From contig CAVPCT010000005.1 of assembly GCA_963702475.1 (NCBI GenBank), positions 928,001 through 992,000 of the forward strand: a stretch of DNA of 64,000 nucleotides, read 5' to 3'. The position numbers were made by a program, and so were the translations under genes. This document shows positions 7,941 through 58,282 of this stretch, piece by piece (within the stretch, counting starts at the first letter, position 1; each line of letters opens with the position of its first letter). Source of the stretch: an uncultured Thermoleophilia bacterium. Lineage in GTDB: Bacteria > Actinomycetota > Thermoleophilia > UBA2241. Under the pieces are notes generated by a model. The model saw only the letters and a program-made list of their open reading frames with translations, did not search any database and was not told the origin of the DNA.

Positions 7941-8252
7941 CTACTCCGTGTGTCGAGGCCAGTGGGGCGTCTTGCGCGTGGCCGTCGGCACCTCCGCAGG
8001 CGCCGCGGGCGGCGTTTCACCGGCCAGGATGGCCCGGATGACCGGCGACCTGTTCCTCGGCACATCGGCCGTCACCGCTGACGCCGCGCCCGCGGTCGTC
8101 ACCGCGGCCGCCGACGTGGTCTGAGACTGCGTCTCCCAGGGCTGGTCGACCAGGACCAGCACGACGACCGCGACGGCGGCAGCGACCAGGAGGACGGCGA
8201 TCGTTCGCCACGGCACCTGCACGTGCGGCCTGTGAGTGATGGTGACGCTCAT
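7941..8252 (-). CDS. Small membrane-anchored hypothetical protein
   Basis: GGAGGG RBS, N-terminal TM helix, Thr/Ala/Pro-rich tail. Confidence 0.65.
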   Translation of the reverse strand: MSVTITHRPHVQVPWRTIAVLLVAAAVAVVVLVLVDQPWETQSQTTSAAAVTTAGAASAVTADVPRNRSPVIRAILAGETPPAAPAEVPTATRKTPHWPRHTE

Positions 8253-8375
8253 GATCCCTCCGATCTCCGCTTGTCCTCGATCTGAAGGTAGGCCTCACGG
8301 GGACGCTGCACATCGGCCGAAACGGATTAATCGTCAAACGGGTAGCGTGCGGCGAGGGTGCCGAATGAGACGATG

Positions 8376-11136: not shown

Positions 11137-13020
11137 TCACATCTCGGAGGTCATCATTGGGGCCGCCGCCTGTCCACTCGCCCCACCCGCGGCCTTCACC
11201 TCGAGCGAGAGGCGCTCCTCCAGCGCGGTGAGCAGCTCCACGGCCTCCGCGCTGAGGCCCGGCTGCGTCGCGCGCCCGTGTATGACGGCGAGCAGGTCGT
11301 TGAGGGCGGCCAGGCGGTCCGTGCTCCCCGGTGTCCGCAGGGCGAAGGCGACGATGCCGTCGAGCACGCGAGGCTGGACACGGTCCGGCCTGAGGGTGGC
11401 GAGGACGCCGGCGCGCTCGAGCAGGTCCCGTGTGTCTGGGCGCAGGCCGCACAGCCACAGTTCGATGCCGTCGCCGGCGAGACGCTGCCGCAGGTCGTCC
11501 AGGGCGTCGGCCACGGGCACATCGGCTTCCGGCGTCAGCCCCAGGTCGAGCAGGACGACCGACGGGCGCGGGTCGGCCCCCGCGACGGCCTCGACGATCT
11601 CGTCGCGCACCGCAGCGACGTTGGCGAAGAAGAGCATCTCGTCGGGACGCACGATGAGCAGGCCCGCGATCGCCGCCTCCGGTGCCGTGCGCAGATCGAC
11701 CGGCTCGAGGCCGCCGCGGGCCCGGCCGAGGAAGGTGAGGCGCGGCTGGCTCGATCGCCAGACCAGCATCAGCAGCGAGACGACGACGGCGATCGCCAGC
11801 GCCGGCAGGGTCGGCATCACGAGCACGCCGGCGAGGGCGATGAGCGCCAGCCAGAAGTCGGTCCGCCGCAGCCGCCACAACTGCCGCATCTTGCCGACCT
11901 TCATCATCCCCGCCACGGCGACGATGACGATAGCGCCGAGCGTCGCCTCGGGGAGTGGTTCGAACAGCGGCGTCAGGAACAGGGCCACCAGGGCGGTCGC
12001 CGCCGCGGCCGTGACCAGCGAGGCGGGCGTCTTGGCTCCCGCGCGATCGTTGGCGGCCGATTTGGAGAGCGACGAGCCGATCGGGAAGCCGGAGAAGAGG
12101 CCGGCGCCCGTGTTGGCGGCGCCGAGAGCGATCAGCTCCCGGTTCGGGTCGACCTTGCCGCCGTGCAGGCGCGCGAACTCGTTGGCCGGCCCGATCGCCT
12201 CCGCGAACGCGACCAGGGCGATCCCCAGCGCCCCGCCGAGCAGCTGGGGCACGGCATCCAGGCCGACGCCCGGCAGCGAGGGGCCGGCGAGGCCGGCGGG
12301 CAGCGGGCCGACCACCGTGACGCCGTGCGCCTCGAGGCCGACCGCGACCGAGACGGCGATCGAGCCGAGGAGGACGAGCAGCGCCGCCGGGAGCTTGGGC
12401 AGCCGCCGCTCGAGCACGATCATGGCCAAGATGCAGGCCGTGCCCACCGCCAGCGTCAGCAGGTCCGTTTCCTTGACGTGCGGCAGCATGTCCCGGATCA
12501 GAGCGATCGCGGTATCGCCATGGGCCTCGATGCCGAGGATCTTGGGGATCTGCTTGATGGTGATCAGCAAGGCGAGCCCGAACACGAAGCCGACGAGCAC
12601 CGACTGCGAGAAGAACTGGGCGATGCGCCCGAGCCTGAGGACCCCGAACGCGATCGAGACGAGGCCGGCCAGCACCGCCAGAGCGGCGGTGAGGGCGACG
12701 TACTCGGCGCTGCCGGCGGTCGCGAGCTCCGAGATCGTCGCGGCCGACATGATCGCGACGGCCGAGGAGACCGCGACCACCAGCTGGCGCGAGCTGCCCA
12801 GCACCGCGTAGGCGAGCAGCCCGATCGGCGCCGCGTAGAACGCGTACTCCGGGGGGACGCCGGCCAGCTGCGCGTACGCCATGCCCTCCGGGACGAGGAT
12901 ACCGCACACGGTGAGCCCGGCGATGACATCGAAGCGCAGCCAGCTGCGCTTGTAGCCGGGCACCCACTGGAGGATCGGCCAGGTATGCCCCGTCGCTCGC
13001 CGAGCTGAAGGCTCTGTCAT
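11137..13020 (-). CDS. SulP family anion transporter with STAS domain
   Basis: DVIAGLTV, PEGMAYAQLAGVPP, NRELIALGAAN, C-terminal LFFANV STAS. Confidence 0.92.
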   Translation of the reverse strand: MTEPSARRATGHTWPILQWVPGYKRSWLRFDVIAGLTVCGILVPEGMAYAQLAGVPPEYAFYAAPIGLLAYAVLGSSRQLVVAVSSAVAIMSAATISELATAGSAEYVALTAALAVLAGLVSIAFGVLRLGRIAQFFSQSVLVGFVFGLALLITIKQIPKILGIEAHGDTAIALIRDMLPHVKETDLLTLAVGTACILAMIVLERRLPKLPAALLVLLGSIAVSVAVGLEAHGVTVVGPLPAGLAGPSLPGVGLDAVPQLLGGALGIALVAFAEAIGPANEFARLHGGKVDPNRELIALGAANTGAGLFSGFPIGSSLSKSAANDRAGAKTPASLVTAAAATALVALFLTPLFEPLPEATLGAIVIVAVAGMMKVGKMRQLWRLRRTDFWLALIALAGVLVMPTLPALAIAVVVSLLMLVWRSSQPRLTFLGRARGGLEPVDLRTAPEAAIAGLLIVRPDEMLFFANVAAVRDEIVEAVAGADPRPSVVLLDLGLTPEADVPVADALDDLRQRLAGDGIELWLCGLRPDTRDLLERAGVLATLRPDRVQPRVLDGIVAFALRTPGSTDRLAALNDLLAVIHGRATQPGLSAEAVELLTALEERLSLEVKAAGGASGQAAAPMMTSEM

Positions 13021-13107
13021 CGTCGTCCCCGATCGCCCGCCGGGCTCCCGGCGCATCCTCGTCTCAGAGTGACACGATATCGCTGTCCTCGCATGTGCGA
13101 CGTCCGG

Positions 13108-16781: not shown

Positions 16782-16830
16782 GGTGCGCTCCTGTGGACGC
16801 ACACGCAGACGAACTGAAGGGGTGAGGAGG

Positions 16831-19188
16831 ATGCGGGAGCCATTCAAAGGGGTCATCAACGTCGACATCCGCGACTCGACGCCGGACTGGGCGCCGTTCG
16901 AGCCGCCCAGGGCGCCGGACGGCGCCCCCAACGTCGTCTACATCGTGCTCGACGACGTCGGCTTCTCGGCGATGAGCTGCTACGGGGGGCCGATCGAGAC
17001 GCCCAACATCGACCGCATCGCCGCCGAGGGCGTGCGCTACACGCAGTGGCACACGACCGCCCTCTGCTCCCCGACGCGATCCTGCCTGCTCACCGGCCGC
17101 AACCACACCCGCAACAGCATGGCCTGCATCACCGAGGGCGCGATCGGGTTCCCGAACGGGAGCGGCACCGTCCCGCCCGAGAACGGCATGCTCTCCGAGA
17201 TCCTCGGCGAACTGGGCTGGAACACCTACATGGTCGGCAAGTGGCACCTCTGCCCGACCGACGAGATGAACCTGGCCGCGCCGCGGCGCAACTGGCCGAG
17301 CGGCCGCGGCTTCGAGCGCTGGTACGGGTTCCTGGGGGCGGAGACCAACCAGTGGTATCCCGAGCTGGTCTACGACAACCACCCCGTCGACCAGCCCAGG
17401 TCGCCGGAAGAGGGTTACCACCTCACCGAGGACATCACCGACAAGGCGCTCGAGTTCATCAAGGACGCCCACGCGATCGCGCCCGACAAGCCGTTCTTCC
17501 TGTACTACGCACCGGGGGCGTGTCACGCGCCGCATCACGCGCCCAAAGAGTGGATCGCCAAGTTCAAGGGGCGCTTCGACGCGGGGTATGAGGCGATGCG
17601 GGTCGAGACGCTCGCCCGGCAGAAGGAGATGGGCCTCGTCCCGCCCGCTACCGAGCTGCCGCCGGTGAATCCCATCGGCACGGCGGCGACGCGCACGGGG
17701 CCGAAGGGGCAGCCCTTCCCGGCACTGGACTTCACCAAGCCGTGGGACTCGTTGTCCGATGAAGAGAAGCGGCTCTTCGCGCGGATGGCCGAGGTCTACG
17801 CCGGCTTCCTCGCGCACACCGACCACCACATCGGAAGGCTGCTCGACTACCTCGACGAGGCCGAGCTGCGCGAGAACACCCTGGTCATCCTGGTCTCCGA
17901 CAACGGCGCCAGCGGCGAAGGCGGTCCCGTCGGCTCGGTGAACGAGAACCTGTTCGTGAACGGCATGCCCGACGATCTCCAGGCCAACCTCGCGCTGCTC
18001 GACGAACTCGGCGGCGTCAAGACCTACAACCACTACCCGACCGGCTGGGCGATGGCCTTCAACACGCCGTTCAAGATGTGGAAGCGCTACAACTTCAACG
18101 GCGGCACCTCCGACCCATGCGTCATCTCGTGGCCGACGGGGACGAACGCCAGGGGCGAGCTCAGGGAGCAGTACCACCACGCGATCGACATCGTCCCGAC
18201 GATCCTCGACTGCCTCGGCGTAGAGGCTCCCGAGACCATCAAGGGGAACGTCCAGAGCGACTTCGACGGCGTCAGCATGCGGTACAGCTTCGACGACGCT
18301 GCGGCCCAGGGGACGCGCACGACGCAGTTCTACTCGATGCTCGGCCAGCGCGCGGTCTGGCACGACGGGTGGAAGGCCGTCACCACCCATCCGCCGCTCA
18401 GCGGGTGGAGCGACTTCAACGACGACGCCTGGGAGCTCTACCACACCGCCGTCGACCGTGCGGAGCTGCACGACCTGGCCGCAGAGATGCCCGACAAGGT
18501 GCGCGAGCTCGTGAACCTCTGGTTCGCCGAGGCCGGCAGGAACGCGGCGTTCCCACTCGACGACCGCCTGGTGCTCGAGATCGGCCTCGCAGAGCGGCCG
18601 CAGCTCTCCGCGCCACGCGACAAGTACGTCTACTATCCGGGCATCGCGGACGTCCCCGAGAGCCAGTCCGTCAACATCCGCAACCGCTCCTACTCTCTCG
18701 GCGCGCTGGTCGACATCCCGGCGCCGGGCGCCGAGGGAGTGCTGTTCGCCCACGGCGCACGCTTCGGCGGGCACGCCCTCTACGTCAAAGACGACAAGCT
18801 GCACTACGTCTACAGCTTCGTGGGAGTGACGGAGCAGAAGATCGATGGGACGGAAGATGTCCCGACCGGCGAGAACCTGCTCCTGGCCGCCACCTTCGAG
18901 AAGGACGGGGAGGACCCGCCGGGCGTCGCCACGGGCATGCTGTCCCTCTACCACGGCGACAAGAAGGTGGGTGAGGGGCGGATCAAGACCCAGCCCGGGC
19001 AGTTCTCATTGGGTGGCGAAGGGCTGTGCGTGGGGCGCGACAGCGGCGCCCCGGTCACCGACGACTATCCCGGCGAGGCCCCGTACCGGTTCACCGGCGG
19101 CACCATCAAGCAGGTGAGGGTCAACGTGAGCGGCGAGCCCTATCTGAACCTGGAGCGCGAGGCAGTAGCGATGCTCATGCGGGAGTGA
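16831..19188 (+). CDS. Arylsulfatase (Cys-type, about 785 aa)
   Basis: PNVVYIVLDDVG, CSPTR formylglycine motif, GKWHL, SDNGAS. Confidence 0.95.
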   Translation: MREPFKGVINVDIRDSTPDWAPFEPPRAPDGAPNVVYIVLDDVGFSAMSCYGGPIETPNIDRIAAEGVRYTQWHTTALCSPTRSCLLTGRNHTRNSMACITEGAIGFPNGSGTVPPENGMLSEILGELGWNTYMVGKWHLCPTDEMNLAAPRRNWPSGRGFERWYGFLGAETNQWYPELVYDNHPVDQPRSPEEGYHLTEDITDKALEFIKDAHAIAPDKPFFLYYAPGACHAPHHAPKEWIAKFKGRFDAGYEAMRVETLARQKEMGLVPPATELPPVNPIGTAATRTGPKGQPFPALDFTKPWDSLSDEEKRLFARMAEVYAGFLAHTDHHIGRLLDYLDEAELRENTLVILVSDNGASGEGGPVGSVNENLFVNGMPDDLQANLALLDELGGVKTYNHYPTGWAMAFNTPFKMWKRYNFNGGTSDPCVISWPTGTNARGELREQYHHAIDIVPTILDCLGVEAPETIKGNVQSDFDGVSMRYSFDDAAAQGTRTTQFYSMLGQRAVWHDGWKAVTTHPPLSGWSDFNDDAWELYHTAVDRAELHDLAAEMPDKVRELVNLWFAEAGRNAAFPLDDRLVLEIGLAERPQLSAPRDKYVYYPGIADVPESQSVNIRNRSYSLGALVDIPAPGAEGVLFAHGARFGGHALYVKDDKLHYVYSFVGVTEQKIDGTEDVPTGENLLLAATFEKDGEDPPGVATGMLSLYHGDKKVGEGRIKTQPGQFSLGGEGLCVGRDSGAPVTDDYPGEAPYRFTGGTIKQVRVNVSGEPYLNLEREAVAMLMRE

Positions 19189-30319: not shown

Positions 30320-30401
30320 ATCGCGGGAGGGCTCGCGAGCGACGGCCTCCAGCAGCGCGAGGAAGAGCAGGCGCATCGACCACCGCGTCCCGCGAGCCCG
30401 T
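30320..30401. repeat. 82-bp direct repeat, copy 2
   Basis: Matches 28879-28960. Confidence 0.88.
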
Positions 30402-31159
30402 TACGGCCTCCCCGAGCCGGCGAGGTGCCCAGGGGGAAGGACTTCCCCCGTCGGCCGTCGCCCCGTGAGGTGCGTCACGAGGATGTACACACTCACGAGG
30501 AGCACCCATGCCGGGAAGATCAGGATGACCCAGGAGGCCTGCGTCACGACGAAGAGGAGGAGGAGCGCTACCACGAGCGTGAGCAGCGCCATCCACCGGG
30601 GCATCACACCGGTGCGCAGCCAGAGCGTCGCCTGAGAGATCAAGAAGACGGCGGCCATCCTCAGGGCGTAGACGGTGAAGATCTGCGCCACGATCTCGCG
30701 GGCGTACAGGTAGGTGCTGCTGGCCACGAATGCCGACGGCGACTTGGCATAGGCGGCGGCGATGGCGGCCGCGGACGCGGCGGCGGCGAAGACCATCGCC
30801 AGGAAGAGCAGCCCGCTACCGAGAAAGACGGTCGAGAAGAACTGGTCCTCGAAACGTCCCAGGCGCTCCCGCGCCACGGCGATGAACCAGAGGAAGAAGA
30901 GCCCCGCGAAGGGCACGAGGGCGATGGCAAAGCGGAACGCGCCCGAGCTCAGCTCGAGCCACGCGCCCGAGTCGTCAGTCACGGCGGTCATCGTGCCGGA
31001 GATGATCGTCACGCTGACGCTGAAGAGCACGGCGAAGAGGATGCCCGCGACGGCGCCGGCGATCGGCGTCGCGGCCCGGCGCTCGACCTCGGCGGTGACC
31101 TCGGCGGAAGCAGCCTCGGTCGGTCGGCCAGCGCCGCCGCGACTCGATGTCCCGCTCAT
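30401..31159 (-). CDS. Multi-pass membrane protein of unknown function
   Basis: ATG after AGGAGGAG; LVPFAGLFFLWFIAVARERLGRFEDQFFSTVFLGSGLLF; its fusion to SulP in the ORF track is due to a frameshift. Confidence 0.75.
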   Translation of the reverse strand: MSGTSSRGGAGRPTEAASAEVTAEVERRAATPIAGAVAGILFAVLFSVSVTIISGTMTAVTDDSGAWLELSSGAFRFAIALVPFAGLFFLWFIAVARERLGRFEDQFFSTVFLGSGLLFLAMVFAAAASAAAIAAAYAKSPSAFVASSTYLYAREIVAQIFTVYALRMAAVFLISQATLWLRTGVMPRWMALLTLVVALLLLFVVTQASWVILIFPAWVLLVSVYILVTHLTGRRPTGEVLPPGHLAGSGRP

Positions 31160-32932
31160 GTCTCCTCCTTGCCCTGCGCGGCACCGTCGCCCGCATGGCG
31201 TTCTCGCCACTCGAGCGCGGCCGCGTAGGCCGCAGAGCTGGACTCGCCGACGAGCTCCGCCTCCGGGAAGATGGCGATCGCGGACGAGTCCGCCGCTTCG
31301 GCGCGCCTGAACTGCGCGAGCAGGTCGGGGGTCACCCCGCTGAGGAAGAGACGGCCGCCGACGTCCTCGAGCTGCCGCGCGTACACGCGTGAGGATCTTG
31401 AACGAGGTGACGCCGAGCGCCGTACGACCGCGCAGGCGAAGCACGACGACCGGGGCGGCTGCGCCCTGCGGGTCGGGCAAGCGTGCAGCCAGGGTGCGCG
31501 CGCCCGCGTAGTACAGGCTTCCATAGACGTCGAGCAGGATGGCCTCGCGGCCCAGAAGCGTCGCCGGAGCCGGCCGCTCGGCGAAGCGACCGTCGGGGAG
31601 CAGGGCAAGCTCGACGACCCTGAGATCGAGGGCCTCTCGGTTGAGCTGCAGAAGCAGCGACAGCGCTACGCCGATGCCGACGGCGGCGGCGATCGGCAGG
31701 AAGAGCGTCGCGAGGAAGGTGGTCACCATGGCGACCACGGAGCTCGCGCCGGTGCGCATCACCATCCGGATCTCGTCGACCTTGACGGAGCTCACCGCGG
31801 CGAAGATGAGGATCGCAGCCAGCGTCGGCATCGCGACCCTGCCGACGAAGCCCGAGAACACCGAGAGGATGGCGAGCATCCAGAGGCCCGAGAAGATCGA
31901 CGCCCAGCGGGTGTGCGCCCCGGCGGCGACGTTGAGCGCCGTCTGCCCCACCGAGCCGCCGACGGGCTGCCCGCGAAACAGGCCGGCGGCGATGTTGGCG
32001 ATGCCCTGCGCCCGAAAGTCGGCGTTGGCGTCCGAAGCAGCCCCGTCGGGGTTGGGCGCCGCCTCGGCCACGCCGGCTCCCTGGACCAGCACGATCACGG
32101 CGATCACGACCGCGCCCGTCAGCACCGGGACGGAGAAGAGCATGTGCAGCGGCGGCAGCTGCGGCAGCGGGATGCCCGTGGGGATCTCGCCGACGTCGGA
32201 CACCGTTGTCACGCTCGGCAACGCCAGGGCGAGCAGGCTGGGCACGGCCAGCGCGACCACCGAGGCGTAGGACGAGAGCCGCGTCCGCATGAGCACGAGC
32301 AGCAGGGCGAACGTCGCTGCGCCGACGAGCAGCGAGGCCGGGTCGATGCGGCCGGGGTGCAGGGCGACGTCGAGGGCGCGCGTCAGCGCGACGCCGCCGT
32401 TGGCCTCGGCTCCCGTCAGGTCGCCGATCTGGCTGAGGACGATGTTGGCGGCGACCCCGGTGAGGAAGCCCAGCATGACGGAGAGCGAGACGAAGCGCGT
32501 GTAGCGGCCCAGCCGGAGCAGGCCGGCGACCACCATGACGACGCCGGCGAGCAGCGTCAGCAGGATGAGCGCCTCGGTGCGCGCGGCCGGGTCGAAGCCC
32601 GCCAGCGCCGAGCCGGCGGCCAACGCCGCGGCGCTCGTCGTCGTGATGACCATGAGGCGGGTGCTCGAGGTCAGCCCGCCGAAGATCGGCCCGGCGAAGC
32701 TGGCGTAGAGGCCGTGGATGGGGTTGACGCCGACGAGTACGGACGCCGCCATGCCGTCCGGCACGCTGCCGACAGCGCCGGGGATGCCCGCTACCGCATC
32801 GCGCCCGAGGTCACCGCGCGAGACGGCCAGGGAGCGGAGCCAGGTGCGCAGGGCGACTCTCACTCGCGTGGGCGCACCGGTCGGTGCGATAACTCCCTCA
32901 GCATCGTTCGACCTCGGTCCGTGCCGTCTCAC
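31156..32932 (-). CDS. SulP family transporter with STAS domain; frameshift near 31385; start uncertain
   Basis: VPDGMAASVLVGVNPIHGLYAS, PVGGSVGQTALN; STAS continues in another frame (YARQLEDVGGRLFLSGV) to 31156. Confidence 0.85.
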
Positions 32933-33868: not shown

Positions 33869-36222
33869 TCACTGGCGCGCCATCAGCATGCGCAGCGTCG
33901 CTTCGTCGTCCTCGATCAGGTCGCCACTCACGTCCACGACGACCTTGTGCAGCTTCCGGTGAAGATGGCGGGCGGAGCGTAGTCCGGTGTGACCGGCGCC
34001 CCCAGGGCCCGGCCGCAGGTCACGCCGCCGGTGATGCCGAGGGCCAGCGGCGTGGTCGTGGGCACCTCTGCGGCGGCCACCAGCGCGCCGTCGACGTAGA
34101 GCTGCGCAGTGCCGCCGGCGCCCTTGCCCACGCCGATGTCGGGCGGCGAGGTGACCTCGAACTCGAAGCGCAGCTCGTGTTCGCCCGCCGGCACGGGCTC
34201 GGGCGACTCGACGTAGTAGCGGGCGCGGTCGACGTAGTTGTGGCACCACTTGAGCTTGCCGTCCTTCAGATAGAAGGCGTAGCCGCTGTCCATACCTCCG
34301 TGCGCCAGCAGTACACCGTCGGCGCCGCCCTCCGGGATCTCGGCGAAGGCGGTGATGCTGTGGGCGCGGTTCAGGACCTTCGCCGCCGCATTGCCCGCGA
34401 CCATCTGCGTGCCCGGGTAATACGTGAAGCTGCTTCGGTCGGCGGCGATGACCGGCCGTTCCTCGAGCAGGCGCTGCACGCCGCGGCCATCCACCGGCAG
34501 GACGTTGTACTTGCCGGCTTCCACGTACCACTGGCCGATCAGCTCGATCAGCTTGTCGCGGTGCTCGGCGGCGATGTCGTGGTTCTCGGCGAAGTCCTCG
34601 GCCACGTGGTAGAGCTCCCAGTGGTGCGCGTCAAGCTCGGTGAGCGTGTCGTGGGAGAGAGGCGCGCCGAACGGCGGACCGGCCTCGGCGAACGACGGAC
34701 CGGGCCAGGGGCAGACCGCCCGCCACCCGTCCTGGTAGATCGAGCGGTGGCCCAGCATCTCGAAGTACTGCGTGTGGTGCCGGGTCGGCGCATCGGCCGC
34801 GTCGAAGGTGTGCGCGAAGCTCACGCCCTCGATCGGCGACTGCGTGACACCCTCGATGCTCGGTGGCGGCTCGAGGCCGAGGGCCTCGAGCACCGTCGGC
34901 ACCATGTCGATCGCGTGGGCGTACTGGGCGCGCACGTCGCCGCGGGCGGCGATCGCCGCCGGCCAGCTCACGATGAACGGGTCGCTGATGCCGCCGCGGT
35001 AGGTCTCGCGCTTCCAGCGCCGGAATGGCGTGTCTCCCGCCCAGGTCCAGCCCCAGGCGTAGTGGTTGAACGTCGTCGGCGAGCCGAGCTCGTCGATGCG
35101 CGCCAGGTTCTCTTCCAGCGACTCGGGCACGTTGTTGAAGAACTGGGTCTCGTTGACGGAGCCCGTGGGGCCACCCTCCGATGAAGCGCCGTTGTCGGAG
35201 ATCACCATGACGAGCGTGTTGTCGAGCTCGCCGAGCGAACGCAGGAACTCGAGCACCCGTCCGATGTGGTGGTCGGTGTGGGTCATGAAGCCGGCGAAGA
35301 CCTCCATCATGCGCGCGTACAGGCGGCGCTCGTCGGCGCCGAGCGACTCCCACTCCTGCACGTCCGGGTCGTGGCGCGAGAGCTCGGCCTCCTGCGGCAC
35401 GATGCCGAGCTCCTTCTGGCGCGCGAAGACGCGCTCGCGGTAGGCGTCCCAGCCGTCGTCGAACTTGCCGGCATACCTGTCCGCCCACTCCTTGGGGACG
35501 TGGTGGGGAGCATGCTGGGCGCCGAGACAGTAGTAGAGGAAGAAGGGCTTGTTCGGAGCCACCTGCTTGGTGTCGGCGATGAACGAGATCGCCCGGTCGG
35601 CGAGATCCTCGTTCAGCGTGTAGCCCTCCTCGGGTGTCTTCGGCGGCTCGACCTGATGGTTGTCGTACACCAGCTCGGGATAGTACTGGTGCGTCTCGCC
35701 GCCCAGGAACCCGTAGAAGCGCTCGAAGCCGCGTCCCAGCGGCCAGCGGTCGTAGGGGCCGGCGGCCGAGATCTGATCGGCCGCGGTCAGATGCCACTTG
35801 CCGACCGCGTAGGTGTTGTAGCCGTGCTGCAGCAGCATCTCCGAGAGGAACCCGTTCTCGTGCGGGACGTAGCCGTTGTAGCCCGGGTAGCCGGTCGAGC
35901 CCTCGGTGATGCAGGCCATGCTGTTGGAGTGATGGTTGCGACCAGTCAGGATGCAGGTCCGGGTCGGCGAACAGAGCGCCGTGGTGTGCATGTTGGCGTA
36001 GGTCAGGCCGTTCGCGGCCAGCGCGTCGAGGTTCGGTGTCTCGATGGGGCTGCCGAAACAGCCGATCTGGCCGTAGCCGGTATCGTCGAGCACGATGAAG
36101 AGCACGTTCGGCGCACCCTCCCGTGCCCGCAACGGCTGCGGCCAGGCGGGTTCGCTCACGTCGAACGTCCGGCCCACGACGCCGGGGAACGCCGTGCCGG
36201 GCGCGTACTCGTTGAGAGCCAT
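33869..36222 (-). CDS. Arylsulfatase, paralog of 16831-19188; frameshift near 33955
   Basis: PNVLFIVLDDTG, CSPTR, GKWHL; the C-terminus VVVDVSGDLIEDDEATLRMLMARQ in the next frame matches the paralog end. Confidence 0.93.
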
Positions 36223-49725: not shown

Positions 49726-51215
<1,490 letters not shown>

Positions 51216-51290
51216 GACGGACCTCTCTTCGGTCGACAGCAGTGCACCGACCCGGCGCGCGCCTGAGTCACGCCGACTGTATAGAGGTGA

Positions 51291-51710
51291 TCAGCGGGCC
51301 ACAATGCCACAGCAGCGCTTGTACTTCCTGCCGCTGCCGCGGGGCACGGGTCGTTGCGGCCGGTCGTGCGGGCCTCCGCGGCGAGGATCGCCATGACCTC
51401 GCGCGCCTCGCCGCCGCGGGAGAGCACGTCGGCCGGGCGCATGCGCCGCTCGGTGTGCACGAAGGACTCCTTGAGCCCACCGCACAGCCAGTTCAGCCCG
51501 GGCTCGCCACCGGGCGTCACCAGGATGCGGTTCTCGGGGCACTCGCCGTGGCAGGCGAAGAGGAACTCGCAGGCGCGACAGAACGCCGGCAGCGTGTCCT
51601 GCTTGGCCCGCCCGAAGGCGCGCTGCCGCTCGGAGCGCACCAGCTCGCCGACCGACCGGGCTGCGGGCGTGGAGTCGATCATCTGGGAGGCATGGGGCTC
51701 AGCAGACATC
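51291..51710 (-). pseudogene. Anaerobic sulfatase maturase C-terminal remnant (SPASM end plus SEC-C)
   Basis: FGRAKQDTLPAFCRACEFLFACHGECPENR...GLNWLC, GRNDPCP..SGRKYKRCCG; no radical SAM core upstream. Confidence 0.78.
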
Positions 51711-51805
51711 GTCCGGCGCACATCGACTGGGCGGACGGCTGAGGAAGCCCCGAGCGCTATCGACGCCCCGGAGAGCTCGAAGTGCGCCGGCATCCGGCGG
51801 CTCCT

Positions 51806-52855
51806 TCAGCGCGCCGCCGGCGGGAAGATCGCCTCGTTCTCGTCCAGGTCCCCGTCCACCTTCGGCGCGCCAGACACCACGAGCACCGCGCCGGCGAACG
51901 TGATCAGCACGCCGGCGACGAGCTGGACGGTCGGGTGCAACCCGGTGAGGACGATGGAGAAGACGATCGCCCACACGGCGTAGAGCGAGTTGATCGGCAT
52001 GGCGCGGCTGGCGCCCACGAGGTGGTTGGCGGCGTAGTACGTGAGGTAGGAGGCGGCGCCGGCTACGGCGGCGCCCAGGACGAGCCACAGGCTGGTGCTC
52101 CGGAACGCGGCGGCGAAGACGCCGAGACCGCCGGCCAGCGGCAGCACGACGACGAGGTAGATCACAGCCGAGGTCGCCATGCGCAGCGTGCCGGCCACCA
52201 CCGGTTCCACGGCCTTCATCGCATGGATGGCCAGGACCCCCTCGACCCCCCAACCCACGGTGGCGACGGCGGCGAGGCCGATGCCGAGGTAGAAGTGCGG
52301 CATGTCACCGGCGGGGGGCGTGTACGTGGCGATCACGGCGCCCGTGACGGTCACGGCGATGCCCAGCCAGCCGCGACGCGAGACGTGCTCGCGCAGGAAG
52401 ATACGGGAGAGGACTGCGCCGACGGCGGGATACGTGGCGCTGAGCGCCAGGGCGTACGCCGCGCCCGCGTACTTGATGCCGAACAGATAGCCCGACATGG
52501 CGATCGGGCCGCCGATGACGGCGGCGGCGCAGAGGATCAGCCCCTGTCTGGTGGCGAGGCTGCGCGGCAGCTGGCGCAAGCGCCCGGTGGCCGCGTTGAA
52601 GGCCACCATCCAGCCGGTCGCGAGGACGTCGTGCAGGGCGGCCGCGGCGAGAGGAGCGACCAGCGCGGCCGCGCCCAGGAACGGCGCCATCGCGAGAGCC
52701 ACACCGAGCACGACGCCGTCGGCTCCCCAGCACACGCCCGAGAGCAGCGCCCAGGCGAGGCCCGAGCGGCGATAGGTGTGCGGCACCGCCGTCGAGGTCG
52801 CGCCGGCGGGCGAGGCGGCGCCCGCGGGCGACTCCGCCTGGTCGACGACGGACAT
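51806..52855 (-). CDS. DMT/EamA transporter resembling the choline permease LicB
   Basis: LLSGVCWG, AALHD, GGPIAM, SATYPA, GWGVEGVL, SYLTYY, INSLYAVW parallel the recalled LicB motifs; start overlaps the activase stop (TGATG). Confidence 0.78.
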   Translation of the reverse strand: MSVVDQAESPAGAASPAGATSTAVPHTYRRSGLAWALLSGVCWGADGVVLGVALAMAPFLGAAALVAPLAAAALHDVLATGWMVAFNAATGRLRQLPRSLATRQGLILCAAAVIGGPIAMSGYLFGIKYAGAAYALALSATYPAVGAVLSRIFLREHVSRRGWLGIAVTVTGAVIATYTPPAGDMPHFYLGIGLAAVATVGWGVEGVLAIHAMKAVEPVVAGTLRMATSAVIYLVVVLPLAGGLGVFAAAFRSTSLWLVLGAAVAGAASYLTYYAANHLVGASRAMPINSLYAVWAIVFSIVLTGLHPTVQLVAGVLITFAGAVLVVSGAPKVDGDLDENEAIFPPAAR

Positions 52856-53904
52856 CACCCGAGCCCCTGTACGGCGCGGCACTCGACGCCGGCGGCGCGG
52901 CGGGTCACGTCCGCCGCCACGGCGGCGAGCCGTTCGGGCTCAGGGCGCTCCAGCGCCGGCGGCGCCAGGTCCAGGGCGGCGTACTTGTGCGCGCCGAGCG
53001 CGTGGCAGGGCAGCAGGTCGACGCGGCGGATGCGCGGGTGGCCGGCGACGAACGCCGCGAGCGCCTCCAAGCTGTCGCGGTCGTCGTTCGCCCCCGGGAC
53101 CACGGGTACGCGGACCGTCACGTCGGCGCCAGTCTCAAGCAGCCTCTCGAGGTTCTCGATGATCGACTCGTTGCCCAGGCCGGTCAGCTCCTCGTGCCTC
53201 TTCGAGTCGAGCGCTTTGAGGTCGTAGAGGAAGAGGTCGGTGAGCTGCGCCGCCTCGCGCAGGTCGTCCCAGCGCGCCTGCCCGCAGGTCTCCACGGCGG
53301 TGTGGTAGCCCCAGCGGCGGCAGCGCCGCAGGCACTCGAGCAGGAAGGCGGGCTGCGCGAGCGGCTCCCCGCCGGAGAAGGTGACGCCCCCGCCGGACCG
53401 CCGGAAGAAGGGGGCGTCACGCCGGACCTCGGCCATGAGCCCATCGGCGGTCACCTCGCGGCCCATGAGGCGCCGCGCCCCGCGCGAGCACGCGGCGGCG
53501 CACACGCCGCAGGCGGCGCACAGTCGGCGGTCGGTGCGCACGCGGCCTTCGTCCGTGCGCACGGCGCCGCGTGGGCAGGCCTCGACGCAGCGGCCGCAGC
53601 CGGCGCAGAGGCTCTCGAACCAGGCGATCTGCGGACCCGGCTGCTGCGACTCCGGGTTGGCGCACCAGACGCAGTGGAGCGGGCAGCCCTTGAAGAACAC
53701 GACGGTGCGGATGCCGGGGCCGTCGTGCAGCGAGAACCGCTGCACGTCGAAGACCCGGCCGCGCGTTCCCGGCGCGGCCGCATCCGCCGCGCCGGCGTCC
53801 GCCGCGCGGGACTCGGCCGCGCCCGTCACACCCGGGTCTTCCACGCGCGACCTCCCGTCGATTCCCGCCGCAGGCTCGGAGTGGAGCGGTGGCCCGAAAG
53901 GCAC
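52855..53904 (-). CDS. Glycyl radical enzyme activating protein (radical SAM with ferredoxin insert); start uncertain
   Basis: HDGPGIRTVVFFKGCPLHCVWCANPE, two CxxCxxCxxxC motifs, GGGVTFSGGEP. Confidence 0.93.
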   Translation of the reverse strand: MPFGPPLHSEPAAGIDGRSRVEDPGVTGAAESRAADAGAADAAAPGTRGRVFDVQRFSLHDGPGIRTVVFFKGCPLHCVWCANPESQQPGPQIAWFESLCAGCGRCVEACPRGAVRTDEGRVRTDRRLCAACGVCAAACSRGARRLMGREVTADGLMAEVRRDAPFFRRSGGGVTFSGGEPLAQPAFLLECLRRCRRWGYHTAVETCGQARWDDLREAAQLTDLFLYDLKALDSKRHEELTGLGNESIIENLERLLETGADVTVRVPVVPGANDDRDSLEALAAFVAGHPRIRRVDLLPCHALGAHKYAALDLAPPALERPEPERLAAVAADVTRRAAGVECRAVQGLG

Positions 53905-53911
53905 ACCGCTC

Positions 53912-56324
53912 TCACAGCGCGGCGTTCGCCGTGCGCGAGATGATGTCGTTCTGGATGTCCTCGTGCAGTTCGACGAAGAACGCGGAGTAGCCGGCGACGC
54001 GCACCAGCAGCGAGCGGTACTCGTCGGGCTCGGCCTGCGCGCAGCGCAGCGTCTCCTCCTTCACCACGTTGAACTGGATGTGGTAGATGGGCAGGTCGAG
54101 GAAGCCGCGCAGGTAGGCGGCGAAGCGCTGCAGGCCCTCGTCACCGGCGACGACCTGCGGCTCGAACTTGACGTTGAGCAGCGTGCCGCCGTCGAGGTCC
54201 TCGTGCTGGAACTTGCCGACCGAGCGCAGCACGGCCGTCGGCCCGAGCCGGTCCGTCCCCTGGTTCGGCGAGACGCCGTCCGCCAGGGGCCTGCCGGCCT
54301 TGCGGCCGCTGGGCAGCGCCGCGACCGTGAGGCCCTGCGGCACGTTGGAGGAGACCGGGTACCACGACGGCATCATCGTGCCGCCGGTGAGCGTCGCGTA
54401 CTTGTCGTGCTCGGTCACGACGAGGTGCGCGAAGTGGCGCACGTACCGGTCCACCTCGTCGTCGTCGTTGCCGTACTTGGGCGCCGCGAGGCAGAGGTCG
54501 CGCACCTCCTCGTAGCCCTCGAAGTCGGCGCGCAGCGCCTCCCGCAGCTCGTCCATCGAGAGGCGCTGCTCGTCGTACACGAGCTTCTTGACGGCAGCCA
54601 GCGAGTTGACCCCGTCGGCGAGGCCGATGCCGAGCGTGCCCGGGCCGCGCTTGTAGCGGGCGCCGCCGCGCAGCAGATCGGCGCCGTTGTCGATGCAGTC
54701 GAGCATCAGCGCCGACGCCAGCGGGCACGGCAGCAGCTCGCGGTGCAGCGCCTCGGTCACGTGCCCCTGGATGGCGATGTGGCGGAGCTGCTCGGCGAGC
54801 TGCGCCATCACCGCGGCCTCGAACTCCTCGAAGGCGGCGAGCTCGTTCGGGTCGCCGGTCTCGAGGCCCAGCTTGCGCCCACTCAGCAGGTGTTCGCCGT
54901 TGAACAGCGCGAACTCGACCGCCGAGCCGAAGTTGTAGTGCCCGTAGTCGCTCCACTGGTGCAGCTTGCCGGGCAGGTTGGGCTCGACGCAGCCGACGAG
55001 ACACCAGTCACGCGCCTCCTCGGTGGTCACGCCCTTGCGCAGAAGCGCCTTGATCCCGACCTCGTCGTTGTGGATGGCCGGGAAGCCGGTGCCCAGGCGC
55101 GAGAGCTCGCAGACCTTGAGCAGGAACTCCTCCGGGCAGTTGCGGTGCAGGCGCACGGCCAGCGAGGGCTGGTTGAGGCGCACGTCCATCGACGCCTGAA
55201 GCATCATGTACGAGACGTCGTTGGTGGCGTCCTCGCCGTTCGCCTTCACCCCGCCCGCGGTCACGTTCTGGAACGCCGTGTAGCCGGCGAAGTACTGCGA
55301 ACAGTTGGTGTTGAGGATCCAGCACTGCTCGGCCAGCTTGACCCACAGACACTCGAGCAGCTCCTGCGCGTGGTCGTGCGTGAGCCGGCCGGCGGCCACA
55401 TCGGCTGTGTAGTACGGCTCGAGGTACTGGTCCATGCGGTTGGGCGAGTACGACGGCGCGTTCAGCTCCATCATCAGGCTCATCTGCGCGAACCAGACCA
55501 GCTGCAACGCCTCGTGGAAGGTGCGCGGCGGCTCCTCGGCGATCCACTCGCAGGCCGCCGCGACCCGCTCGAGCTCGGCGGCGCGCTCCGGCGGCGACAT
55601 CGCCGCCAGCTCCCGCGCCGCCGCCGCGTGCCGCCGCGCCAGGATGCCCATCGCCTCGCAGCTGATGACGACGGCCTCGAGGAAGTAGCGCTTGTCGTCG
55701 CTCGCCGGGTCGGCGACGTCGAGCGCCGCCAGCCGCTCTTCGGCCCAGCGGCGCACCCCGCCCCACCCCTTCGGCAGCAGGATCTCGCCGTAGCCGAGGG
55801 CGATCTCTCCCGGGCCCGACTCGGTCTTGATCTCGACGTCGATCACGCCGGTCTCGTAGCCGAGCGCCCGCGTGTCGGCCGGCACGCGCTTCAGCCAGTG
55901 CTCGATGACCGTCTTGCCCTTCCAGTACGGGTGGACGCTTCTCGCGGAAGAGCGCCTTCTGCTCCTCGTCCACGAGGTACGGGTCCTGCGGCCGGTCGCT
56001 CAGCGTGTCGAGCTCCTTGGCGAACCAGTAGTTGGACATCTCCGGCCCGAGGACGCCGGTGCGCGGTCTGCGCCCGGCGTTACCCACGATGAGCTCGTCG
56101 TCCTGGATGAGGATGGTCTTGGTCTCGCAGGTGCGCTTCAGGCCTTTGGCCCTGCGGACGACCATGGGTTCGCCCTCGGTCTCCTGGAAGACCTCGGTGT
56201 AGGCGAGCGCGCGCTCGATGCACACTGACGGCATGTGCGTGAAGTACTGCGTGCGCAGGCGCGCGATGCGCGGGGACAGGCCCTCGTCCGCCCGCGCGCC
56301 GGCCTCCTGAAGCATGGTCGCCAT
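53912..56324 (-). CDS. Glycyl radical enzyme, eliminase type, CutC-related (about 803 aa); frameshift near 55938
   Basis: IQDDELIVG, PPRTFHEALQ, catalytic GCVEP, glycyl motif LLVRVAGYSAFF. Confidence 0.93.
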
Positions 56325-56357
56325 GTCCCCACCTTTCCGGAGCGCGTCCGTCCCACG

Positions 56358-56405
56358 ACTCACCCGACCGGGTGAGTATAGCAGCGACTCACCCGAACGG
56401 GTAAG
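56358..56405. promoter_or_regulatory. Two palindromic TetR operator candidates
   Basis: ACTCACCCG-AC-CGGGTGAGT (56358-56377) and ACTCACCCGAACGGGTAAG (56387-56405) between the divergent genes. Confidence 0.8.
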
Positions 56406-56445
56406 CTTCTGCGCGTATCGTGACCCGGACCTCAGGAGTGGCGAG

Positions 56446-57129
56446 GTGGCGAGAGCAGCCCCGGTCGACGCGAAACCTCAGACTCGCGACGCCCGCGCGC
56501 CCGCACAGCAGCAGGCGGCGCGTGTCCCGGCGTCGCGCCGGCTCCACCCCACCGCAAAGCGGATCCTCGCCGCCGCCAAGCGCCTCCTCACCGAGCGCGG
56601 CTACCGGGGTCTGACGCTGCAGGCGATCGCGACCGAGTCGGGCGTCAACAAGGCAGGGGTCTGGTACTACTTCGGCGGCAAGGAGCAGCTCGTGCTCGCG
56701 CTGCTGGAGGAGGTCGCCGTCACCGAGTCGCACCACTTCGGCATCCGGCCGGCGGCGTACGCGACGCTGGACGAGCGGGTCGACCTCATCGTGGGCAGCG
56801 CGCAGCGGGTGAAGGACCGGGTGGAGCGCTACGCCGCCTTCTACGAGCTCCTGCCCGAGGCCTCCCGCGACGCCCAGCTTCGCGAGCACCTGATGACGTA
56901 CTACCAGGGCTGGTACGCCTGGGCGGGCGAGGTGCTCACTCCCCCGGGCGCGGACGGCGCCGTACGCACCGGGACACCGACGACGGTGGGCCAGTTCGCC
57001 TCGATCCTGCTCGACGGCATCTTCATGCAGATGGTCGTCGCCGCTCCCGGCTTCGACCTCGAGGCGGCGCTGCAGGACGCGCGCCGCACGCTCAGGCACC
57101 TGCTCGACCCCGAGCCGGCGGCGACGTGA
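56446..57129 (+). CDS. TetR family regulator of the glycyl radical operon
   Basis: RILAAAKRLLTERGYRGLTLQAIATESGVNKAGVWYYFGGKE. Confidence 0.88.
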   Translation: MARAAPVDAKPQTRDARAPAQQQAARVPASRRLHPTAKRILAAAKRLLTERGYRGLTLQAIATESGVNKAGVWYYFGGKEQLVLALLEEVAVTESHHFGIRPAAYATLDERVDLIVGSAQRVKDRVERYAAFYELLPEASRDAQLREHLMTYYQGWYAWAGEVLTPPGADGAVRTGTPTTVGQFASILLDGIFMQMVVAAPGFDLEAALQDARRTLRHLLDPEPAAT

Positions 57130-57535
57130 GGGCGACGCCGCCGGGGGCCGCAGGCCGGGGCGGCGCCGCGGGGCAGAGAGACTGGGGCAAGTACGGGCTG
57201 GGCGCCGCGGCCGCCGGCTGGGTCGTCGCCTTCCTCCCCGCGGTCGTGCCGGCGGCCATCGCGCTGTGGTGCGCCGGGTTCGTCCCGAGCCTCGTCGGCC
57301 GGCGACGCGCGCGGCGCCTACGGCCTCGCCGGTCTGGTCCTCGCCTCACTTGGCCTCGTCTGGGTCGTCGCCGGCATCGCCCTCGGGCTCCTGTTCTTCC
57401 AGGTGTGAGCGTGGCCAACGGTGCGTGTGTTGCCGCATGTTCTGAGTGGGGTAGCCCTCTCAACATAAGCGGCACGGGCCGGCTCGAGCGTTGGGGCTCG
57501 AGCAGCGACCTGGCCTATGAATACAGGAGGGCATC

Positions 57536-58282
57536 ATGAGCTTCACCAGAAAGGTCTCCCTGATCACGGGCGTGGCCTTCCTCATCACCTTCGCCGCCTC
57601 GATCCCGGCGGTGTTCTACTTCTACGCACCGGTGCTGGACAACGCCGACTACATCCTCGGCGCCGGCGCCGACACGCGGATCGGATGGGGCGCGGTCCTC
57701 GAGGTCATCCTCGTGGTCGCCAACATCGCCACCGCCGTGGCGCTGTACCCGGTCGTCAAGCGGCAGAACGAGGGCCTCGCCCTCGGCTACGTGGCGGCTC
57801 GTACCTTCGAGTCCACCATGATCGCCGTCGGCATCATCGCCACGCTTGCCGTGGTGACGCTCCGGCAGGAAGTTGCGGGAGCCGTCGACGCCGCCGCTTC
57901 CGTCGCTCTTGGGCAGTCGCTCGTCGCGGTCCACGACTGGACGTTCCTGCTCGGACCGGGCATGGTGGGCATCTGGAACGGCCTGCTGCTGGGCTATCTG
58001 ATGTACCGCTCCGAGCTCGTGCCGAAGGGCATGGCCGTGCTAGGGATGGTTGCCGGCACCCTGCTGATCGCTTCGGCGATTCCGATCCTGCTAGGTGTGT
58101 ACGAAGCAGGGTCCGCGCCGCAGGTCATCGCGACGGCCCCGGAATTCGTCTGGGAACTGTTCCTGGGCATCTACCTCACGTTCAAAGGGTTCAGGGCGGC
58201 CGGTCTGCGCAAGCTCGGGTTCGAGACGGGCGAGTCCGCCTCCGCGGCCGCTTCCGTGAGCGAGCTGCGGCCGGCGGCGTGA
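57536..58282 (+). CDS. DUF4386-like membrane protein
   Basis: AVALYPVVKRQNEGLALGYV, YRSELVP; AGGAGG RBS. Confidence 0.75.
   Translation: MSFTRKVSLITGVAFLITFAASIPAVFYFYAPVLDNADYILGAGADTRIGWGAVLEVILVVANIATAVALYPVVKRQNEGLALGYVAARTFESTMIAVGIIATLAVVTLRQEVAGAVDAAASVALGQSLVAVHDWTFLLGPGMVGIWNGLLLGYLMYRSELVPKGMAVLGMVAGTLLIASAIPILLGVYEAGSAPQVIATAPEFVWELFLGIYLTFKGFRAAGLRKLGFETGESASAAASVSELRPAA

Follow-up and report, generated by a model that had tools for sequence, protein, structure and literature searches.

Which substrate is used by a glycyl radical enzyme (GRE) which is encoded beside a relative of the choline permease LicB, has much in common with the choline trimethylamine-lyase CutC and differs from it in the pocket? 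The question is raised by a locus at positions 51806 to 57129 of a 64,000-nucleotide stretch of contig CAVPCT010000005.1 from an uncultured Thermoleophilia bacterium (hereafter the window, meaning the whole stretch; G+C ~ 70%). The minus strand of the locus carries genes for an oxygen-sensitive GRE of the PFL2 family, for its radical SAM activase and for a LicB-like transporter of the EamA/DMT family. A gene for a TetR-family repressor diverges from them, and two operator-like palindromes lie in the gap. We would best explain the locus as a catabolic module under the control of a repressor, directed at a small choline-type 2-aminoethanol with N-methyl groups. We give a probability of about 40% to the GRE being a lyase for an N-methylated ethanolamine, most likely dimethylethanolamine.

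Placement and pocket of the glycyl radical enzyme

The GRE gene extends from 56324 to 53912 on the minus strand and is split into two parts by one extra base. It encodes a PFL-like domain (PF02901) and a C-terminal glycine radical domain (PF01228) with the RVxG motif in the form RVAGYSAF. The catalytic Cys loop in the C part, GCVEP, contains the CXE motif, and the cognate radical SAM activase adjoins the gene. CXE is retained in all six C-O cleaving eliminases, and its Glu has the same role in CutC (PMC13450708, sections 5.6.1 and 5.6.2). The first-pass annotation of this DNA had proposed an uncharacterised GRE of the eliminase type, and the presence of both motifs agrees with it.

An intact ortholog from a related locus (L004) reaches 759 bits with TIGR01774, the PFL2/glycerol dehydratase subfamily (cut-off 678). 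With TIGR04394, the NCBI equivalog for CutC (cut-off 1050), the two pieces from the window score 595 and 109 bits, the intact ortholog 747 and an HpyG-like locus 691, while two CutC-type loci reach 1639 and 1671. On this profile, the window GRE is not a CutC. When compared with solved structures by HMMER, its best single stretch scores 598 bits against HpyG (8ID1), 545-556 against CutC, 543 against HpzG (8IOF) and 533 against glycerol dehydratase. The closest in identity is HpyG (43%), before CutC and HpzG (41% each), glycerol dehydratase (40%) and the propanediol dehydratases (38-40%). A characterised match was rejected, since identity with solved GREs never exceeds 43% and the cut-off is reached for none of the NCBIfam equivalogs. 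An AlphaFold model (mean pLDDT 85.8, pTM 0.87) lies at TM 0.94-0.96 from CutC, HpyG, HpzG, glycerol dehydratase and propanediol dehydratase alike; the superposition on CutC that had been suggested for it gives 0.96.

A quick IQ-TREE phylogeny (55 rows, LG+G4, support by SH-aLRT only) places the window GRE in an 18-row clade with a support of 100, sister to an HpyG-like clade with a support of 97. CutC occupies a neighbouring group, and all three are found inside one 42-row superclade (support 98), apart from the GWHD group. Sequences were labelled HpyG-like if their motifs were identical to those in the 8ID1 alignment, and CutC according to TIGR04394 scores. The designation “CutC-related” in the first-pass annotation is too narrow, since HpyG 8ID1 gives the top single-stretch score and the higher identity (43% vs 41%) and belongs with the sister clade. 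At the aligned positions, no characterised GRE appears to have this pocket. Six other loci (L020, L134, L139, L140, L142 and L146) make up a CutC-like subclade that reads C/S-I-K-T/S-Q-N/S-GGGD and QWTSVGY where typical CutC reads SYH..NGGGD and QWTSTGY. Its scored members L139 and L020 clear the CutC cut-off by a modest margin (1127 and 1271 bits, compared with 1639-1671 for typical CutC), and its substrate may differ from choline.

GREs 86-92% identical to the window GRE are encoded at 12 loci in 11 metagenome-assembled genomes. The gene is accessory and rare, being present in 6 of 36 other same-genus genomes searched, and one genome of another genus in the same family encodes a homolog of 51% identity. 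All further GRE matches in a class sample of 301 genomes are at or below 41%, and a phylum sample of 400 Actinomycetota genomes yielded no close homolog at E 1e-150, save one 39% match. No second GRE was found in the host's own genome.

The pocket was read from the HMMER alignment to CutC 5FAY (residue number equal to chain index plus 31, checked at F208 and D216), using residue lists from PMC12451663 and PMC13258700. CutC residues Y208, H209, D216, T334, F389, F395, M487, C489, E491, T502, Y506, L698 and I700 correspond in the window to I, K, E, P, F, F, V, C, E, S, H, Y and V. The choline specificity of CutC is attributed to D216, Y208, T334, T502, Y506 and F395 (PMC13258700). In the window these read E, I, P, S, H and F, that is, one is identical (F395) and two are conservative (D216E, T502S), and the trimethylammonium contacts of CutC are thus not retained as a set. 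The remodelling described in the first-pass annotation (Y208I, D216E, T502S and Y506H) was recovered and extends to T334P, M487V and L698Y, and the catalytic pair C489 and E491 and a Phe are kept, as it had stated; F389 and F395 are both identical. The strings on which that description rested, DVEIKTESGPGE, YFAGYTAF and CLVGCVEP...HQWSDYGH, are exact in the window. The CutC strings cited there agree with the PDB CutC alignment and with the loci scoring 1639-1671 bits (SYHALNGGGD, FFAGYQPF).

The beta-1 site common to eliminases is Asp216 in CutC, His160 in HypD and Gln193 in IslA, according to PMC8473560, and glycerol dehydratase uses His164 (PMC13450708). The site holds Glu in the window GRE and in HpyG, and His in loci with the GxGH motif. 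From two cases, CutC and HpyG, an acidic beta-1 residue appears to accompany enzymes with N-methyl ammonium substrates.

These positions bear on whether the enzyme could instead dehydrate an uncharged diol or polyol such as 1,2-propanediol or glycerol, with transporter and regulator unrelated to its substrate. In fold and identity, glycerol dehydratase (40%) and 1,2-propanediol dehydratase (38-40%) stand as close as CutC does, and aldehyde-oxidising enzymes are encoded close to some relatives. The marks of that group are nevertheless absent: the beta-1 Glu aligns with the His of glycerol dehydratase (His164) and of the GxGH loci, and the Cys-loop strand reads QWSD in place of GWHD, the presumed signature of glycerol and propanediol dehydratases, which the first-pass annotation had likewise reported as lacking in this protein. 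The enzyme also lies in the CutC/HpyG superclade, away from the GWHD group, and a LicB-like transporter is under the same TetR and operator. We consider a diol dehydratase very improbable.

A second alternative is a dehydratase of the HpyG/HypD kind, and not a C-N lyase, with an N-methylated hydroxy compound, formed from a betaine by an MttB- or MtmB-type demethylase, as its substrate. Hydrogen would be abstracted next to the nitrogen and the hydroxyl would leave, giving an iminium. The best single-stretch score (598 bits), the top identity (43%) and the sister position (SH-aLRT 97) all belong to HpyG, and K209, E216, Y504 and V700 occur in HpyG as well. At CutC-numbered positions the window GRE departs from 8ID1 by R208I, S389F, D506H and L698Y, and no carboxylate clamp is visible because the Arg found at position 208 in HpyG is Ile. 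Exchange of this Arg, and of S389, D506 and L698 for F, H and Y, would speak against such a dehydratase, which appears unlikely, also in view of the genomic context considered below.

The 14-position signature of the pocket is not confined to the orthologs; of 121 aligned homologs, 13 have it unchanged. A large unnamed set of GREs (48-65% identity; proteins P0014-P0122; loci L094, L119 and L122) carries it in the form I/L-K-E-P-F/Y-F-V-C-E-x-S-H-Y-V. The signature looks like an older or ancestral state of the superclade, from which CutC and HpyG departed. This set may represent a large unnamed family of amino-alcohol lyases, the source of the specialised CutC and HpyG.

Regulation, genomic context and substrate

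The transporter gene (51806..52855, minus strand, 349 aa) follows the activase gene, which ends at 52855 and begins at 53904 or, more likely, at a GTG at 53844 preceded by GGGAGG (minus strand). The activase scores 347 bits with TIGR02494 (cut-off 174), and no specific activase equivalog was found at cut-off. Since the activase TGA and the transporter ATG share one base, these two genes, at least, appear to be co-translated. Among PDB entries, the transporter matches at E < 0.001 LicB alone (7B0K, E 1.5e-30, full length). In LicB, residues W17, Y109, W167, Y233 and Y255 box the trimethylammonium group, and Y236 and N252 bind the hydroxyl end (PMC8890701). All seven choline-coordinating residues, as well as E170, are identical in the 7B0K alignment of the window protein, and at every one of the eight sites the LicB residue is found in 73-90 of 91 homologs. 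Database names are generic. The likeness to LicB noticed in the first-pass annotation is therefore sustained by full-length homology and by the residues of the binding site.

The TetR open reading frame (ORF) occupies 56314..57129 on the plus strand, and the gene likely starts at a GTG at 56446, after AGGAG at 56434-56438. The protein scores 58 bits with PF00440 and 36.6 bits with PF13977, the BetI-type C-terminal domain (cut-off 27). Identification as BetI was rejected, as TIGR03384 gives 45 bits against an equivalog cut-off of 201 and just the broad C-terminal domain passes. With this likely start, the start codons of GRE and TetR diverge, 121 bp apart. In the gap between them, two 21-nt direct repeats each contain a 16-bp palindrome, TCACCCGnnCGGGTGA; they correspond to the two operators noted in the first-pass annotation beside a divergent TetR. 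The GRE-proximal copy, TCACCCGACCGGGTGA, is located at 56360..56375, and the second, TCACCCGAACGGGTAA, at 56389..56404, begins 29 nt after it. Four strand-matches were counted vs 0.06 expected, and none of 100 shuffles reached four. The first palindrome is the only perfect copy in the whole genome. Four sites with one mismatch, three of them within ORFs, were judged to be chance occurrences and rejected as further members of the regulon. A TATACT hexamer on the GRE strand (56380-56375) sits between the palindromes and may have a promoter role; a consensus scan of 51000-57600 gave neither a sigma-70 promoter nor an intrinsic terminator.

This arrangement is conserved. In every locus that includes the corresponding DNA (8 of 8), a TetR ortholog (50-71% identity) is divergent upstream of the GRE, and the palindrome precedes the GRE in each of the eight related loci with intergenic DNA (L002-L006, L008, L009 and L011); it also occurs once upstream of the GRE in L117. 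An activase ortholog follows the GRE in 11 of 11 loci that include this DNA. In addition, five same-genus loci (L204, L207, L210, L211 and L212) carry TetR (53-69%) divergent beside the DMT gene (72-83%) with the palindrome between them, in two copies in four loci and in one copy in L204. No GRE was found in these five loci, which are apparently stand-alone uptake modules under a choline-type ligand. The module thus occurs in three forms: TetR-operator-DMT, TetR-operator-GRE-activase and, in the window, L001, L004 and L023, the full TetR-operator-GRE-activase-DMT. Because TetR and operator are shared by the DMT-only and the GRE-activase loci, one regulator would serve both importer and enzyme. 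We regard this shared regulation as the strongest new evidence in favour of a choline-type substrate. A search for a conserved unknown neighbour gene among the ortholog loci found none.

A link with methylamine metabolism is indicated by the neighbourhoods of some orthologs and by the host genome. In L003, the palindrome lies between TetR and a corrinoid protein gene of the TIGR02370 type, followed by an MtmB homolog of the non-pyrrolysine kind (PF05369, 6.6e-109, no internal stop), and it recurs immediately ahead of the GRE. L117, whose GRE is an 85% ortholog, has part of an MtmB homolog 9 kb upstream of that GRE, and this fragment shares 57% identity with the MtmB homolog of L003. The one characterised MtmB homolog without pyrrolysine, MtqB, demethylates tetramethylammonium and, at a higher specific activity, choline, according to PMC13044021. 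An aldehyde:ferredoxin oxidoreductase (AFOR) gene is upstream of the GRE in L006, and a ThiS-like gene, an AFOR gene and a NuoF-like gene are just upstream of it in L117. Directly upstream of the GRE in L122 is an aldehyde dehydrogenase gene, so that possible sinks for an aldehyde product adjoin several relatives. L003, the sole locus with the corrinoid and MtmB pair, also carries a flavin reductase of the Old Yellow Enzyme (OYE) family directly after the activase (8132-9265); this reductase could act on an enamine, iminium or enal product.

The genome (4.3 Mb, 9 contigs, 93.8% complete) contains 75 MttB family matches, 15 of them with an in-frame TAG, 16 MtbB matches (11 with TAG) and five MtmB matches (one with TAG). 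PylD scores 209 bits (cut-off 150), AFOR has 11 matches and EutB none. No BMC shell gene (PF00936) is found in the entire genome, which extends to all of it the absence of microcompartment genes noticed around the locus. Within the window, an MttB gene (P0226; 3627-5026, minus strand) has one in-frame TAG read through as pyrrolysine and, in addition, lies in three frames. Public metagenome runs with near-identical DNA are labelled sediment, wetland, soil and wastewater, and we read the host as a soil actinobacterium that probably lives on methylated amines.

Gene content, motifs, the conserved operator, the binding residues of the LicB type, the genomic associations and a frameshift not shared by other loci are observed. 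What we infer on this basis is the compound used, the bond broken, the transport direction and the ligand of TetR, as follows. An effector would release TetR from the two palindromic operators, which would overlap the GRE promoter region, and a choline-family amino alcohol would be imported by the LicB-like transporter. The activase would form the glycyl radical on the glycine of RVAGYSAF, after which the Cys of GCVEP would abstract a hydrogen atom and the Glu of CXE would handle the hydroxyl. The C2 fragment would leave as acetaldehyde and the nitrogen as a methylamine. The leading candidate is N,N-dimethylethanolamine, giving dimethylamine, and the second is monomethylethanolamine. Dimethylethanolamine could arise from choline by cobalamin-dependent demethylation, and the products would feed methylamine methyltransferases of the pyrrolysine type and aldehyde:ferredoxin oxidoreductases. 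Abstraction at the carbinol carbon, as in CutC, or next to the nitrogen, as in HypD and HpyG, would lead to the same end products for a tertiary amine, and the sequence does not separate the two. Dimethylethanolamine is put first because the CutC pocket, strictly kept in CutC-type sequences, is not kept here; because the methyltransferase for quaternary amines that shares the operator in L003 is best understood as acting before the GRE; and because four GRE-bearing relatives lacking a LicB-like match fit a substrate made inside the cell.

The same observations bear on a second, divergent choline trimethylamine-lyase, which would convert choline to trimethylamine and acetaldehyde in a pocket different from that of CutC. 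The aromatic box of the LicB type is fully kept in the transporter, and the cargo of LicB is choline. The genome has neither a canonical CutC nor another GRE, and its many MttB genes with in-frame TAG could use trimethylamine. F389, F395, Q500, W501 and the CXE motif are common with CutC, and Asp216 is replaced conservatively by Glu. Against this, only one of the six CutC specificity residues is identical, and the pocket is strictly kept in CutC-type loci, two of which scored 1639-1671 bits compared with 747 for the intact ortholog. In addition, direct cleavage of choline would leave the co-regulated quaternary-amine methyltransferase of L003 without a need. A choline lyase is accordingly held to be quite unlikely.

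Genomic context likewise adds to both sides of the HpyG-like dehydratase introduced above. MttB genes flank a 59% homolog in L119 and the OYE-family reductase follows the activase in L003, and from a tertiary amino alcohol the same aldehyde and amine would result after hydrolysis by this route. On the other hand, a zwitterionic amino acid is not what one would expect from a LicB-like transporter that has the hydroxyl-binding residues Y236 and N252, and no pyrroline-carboxylate reductase or other proline-related gene is conserved beside the orthologs.

Several observations weigh against an N-methylated ethanolamine lyase. The closest characterised relative by score, identity and tree is HpyG, which is a dehydratase and not a C-N lyase, and the GRE is frameshifted in this assembly. 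The transporter could move the amine product: MttP, a putative trimethylamine permease, is likewise a relative of LicB-like EamA proteins, and the best TCDB matches of the EamA protein encoded with choline demethylation in Eubacterium limosum are MttP and LicB (PMC12155760). The GRE-activase-DMT order reported in the first-pass annotation holds for the window, while only 3 of 11 related loci have the transporter gene behind that of the activase (in L002, a remnant of 39 residues is left), and a DMT match is absent from four GRE-bearing same-genus genomes (G161, G186, G241 and G266). The MtmB link is seen in just 2 of 13 ortholog loci, and the five MtmB matches in the host's own genome are only 28-34% identical to the L003 homolog.

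More distant homologs, which also weigh against it, have other neighbours. L122 (4235-13709, 51% homolog) encodes an amidase, an aldehyde dehydrogenase, the GRE, an activase and an ABC transporter, and its aldehyde dehydrogenase passes the cut-off of the aminobutyraldehyde-dehydrogenase subfamily (664 vs 615 bits). L119 (835-9889, 59% homolog, on a metagenome contig of 46% G+C) encodes MttB, the GRE, an activase and SBP_bac_5, with a sarcosine-oxidase-like flavoprotein (DAO) and a second MttB on the opposite strand; by its gene content, it is another GRE tied to quaternary-amine demethylation. Many homologs 48-65% identical differ from the pocket signature by one or two positions, and in the tree they are spread over several branches that surround the clades of CutC and HpyG. 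As nearly the same pocket is found in homologs with other neighbours, the pocket alone does not single out methylated ethanolamines. SBP_bac_5 after the activase in L006, L008 and L119 was considered as a partner and discarded, since these proteins are only 20% identical and indicate no specific link.

Reading frame and surrounding sequence

The N-terminal part of the GRE (P0002, 55938..56324, minus strand) has 129 codons, begins with ATG at 56324 and scores 117 bits with TIGR01774 over profile positions 3-114. The C-terminal part (P0001, 53912..55936, minus strand) has 674 codons and a TGA stop, and scores 594 bits with PF02901, 104 with PF01228 and 627 with TIGR01774. The first frame ends at 55938 and the second begins at 55936, with a single surplus base at 55937 (minus strand) between them, as read from the window sequence and its ORFs; an indel near 55938 had been suspected, and its position is now fixed. 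The window GRE consequently has no uninterrupted reading frame. In related loci that include both parts, these adjoin directly in a single frame without exception (10 of 10), and intact orthologs are single ORFs of 813-831 codons.

Nine contigs from four public runs (three studies) cross the site. Eight are without base 55937 and one is without base 55940, and the extra base is retained in none of the nine, all of which have an intact frame. The site-crossing pieces listed carry 2-25 further differences from the window, and the exact strain was not found in the public runs, the best word share being 0.42. The third-position G+C of the C-part ORF (53912..55885) is 97%, like that of adjoining genes. 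Other split genes in the 9-contig assembly include a sulfatase and an mttB gene with in-frame TAG, and several such single-frame breaks fit consensus indel errors. The extra base is thus probably a consensus or assembly error.

A real pseudogene in an operon that is decaying in this genome, with functional orthologs elsewhere, would account for the frameshift as it stands in the assembly. It would also suit the adjacent anaerobic sulfatase maturase, which is only a C-terminal remnant, the split sulfatase, and the accessory nature of the GRE (6 of 36 other same-genus genomes searched). It is opposed by the lack of a base at the site in all nine crossing contigs from four runs and three studies, by the 97% third-position G+C, equal to that in the neighbours, and by the several other genes of the assembly that are broken by single frame changes. 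We hold decay of the operon to be decidedly improbable.

The region downstream of the transporter gene (49726-51793) carries parts of other genes. Immediately after the DMT gene, just the last ~ 75 residues of an anaerobic sulfatase maturase are left, and a sulfatase follows in two frames on the minus strand, 50541-51215 corresponding to profile positions 1-138 and 49726-50664 to positions 144-300. The GRE cassette may have entered a sulfatase locus that was in decay; otherwise, the region contains more assembly indels. Choline-O-sulfate, hinted at by these adjoining genes, was rejected as a substrate clue, as they stand beside no ortholog and the sulfatases score far under the choline-sulfatase cut-off. 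Elsewhere in the window (11137-13056, 16783-19188, 30401-32932 and 33928-36222), two large sulfatases (~ 800 aa) and two SulP-family sulfate permeases are encoded.

Comparison with known systems

The locus represents a clade of GRE eliminases with a candidate substrate only and a regulatory context that is unusually rich in information. CutC is the only known GRE 1,2-eliminase that cleaves a C-N bond (PMC13450708, June 2026), and a second one, with another substrate, would widen this chemistry and test how the pocket reads methyl groups. Two cobalamin-dependent choline routes end at dimethylaminoethanol or have been followed only as methyl transfer (PMC12155760, PMC13044021), and an enzyme consuming dimethylaminoethanol would close a gap in anaerobic choline turnover. 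The anaerobic route would run from choline to dimethylethanolamine by an MtqB-like cobalamin enzyme, and from there to dimethylamine and acetaldehyde by the GRE. It is possible, though doubtful, that this would be the first GRE for a partly demethylated choline and the second C-N cleaving GRE eliminase, completing the route in pyrrolysine-using Actinomycetota of soil and wetland, with a pocket that is perhaps ancestral. Our literature search, which left most subscription journals outside its range, found no GRE for dimethyl- or methylethanolamine. The Thermoleophilia hosts have large sets of methylamine methyltransferases, through which the module bears on the supply of methylamines, which are methane precursors. 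The operator, TetR and the LicB-like transporter provide three independent handles for ligand screening, and the question is directly testable.

The N-methyl-hydroxyproline dehydratases HpyG and HpzG share with the window GRE the eliminase fold (TM 0.95-0.96), 43% and 41% identity, CXE and the beta-1 Glu, and the substrate of HpyG is an N-methylated amine (PMC13450708). Four pocket-aligned positions set HpyG 8ID1 apart (Arg, Ser, Asp and Leu there; Ile, Phe, His and Tyr here), with no carboxylate-binding Arg visible in the window GRE, and the partners here are a LicB-like transporter and TetR instead of a hydroxyproline-betaine pathway.

MtqB/MtqC of Methanococcoides methylutens has family-level counterparts in the corrinoid protein and non-pyrrolysine MtmB homolog under the GRE's operator in L003, and the MthB choline demethylation operon of Eubacterium limosum, which releases dimethylaminoethanol, resembles the window locus in its EamA transporter (PMC12155760). 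These systems differ in that they stop at dimethylaminoethanol or pass the methyl group to coenzyme M, with no GRE described.

CutC (5FAU, 5A0U; activase CutD) is similar in identity (41%) and fold (TM 0.96), in the conserved C489, E491, F389, F395, Q500 and W501 and in the acidic residue at 216, and a choline-type amino alcohol is the likely substrate class of the window enzyme as well. It is set apart by the non-conservative changes Y208I, T334P and Y506H, the conservative D216E and T502S, and L698Y and M487V; by the equivalog score of 747 vs 1050 bits; by a genome here free of microcompartment genes; and by its position in another clade. Finally, LicB, the proton-coupled choline importer of Streptococcus pneumoniae (7B0K, 7PAF), agrees with the transporter at E 1.5e-30 and in seven residues together with E170, while here the gene resides in a catabolic GRE operon or beside TetR, and not in a lic operon for phosphocholine decoration.

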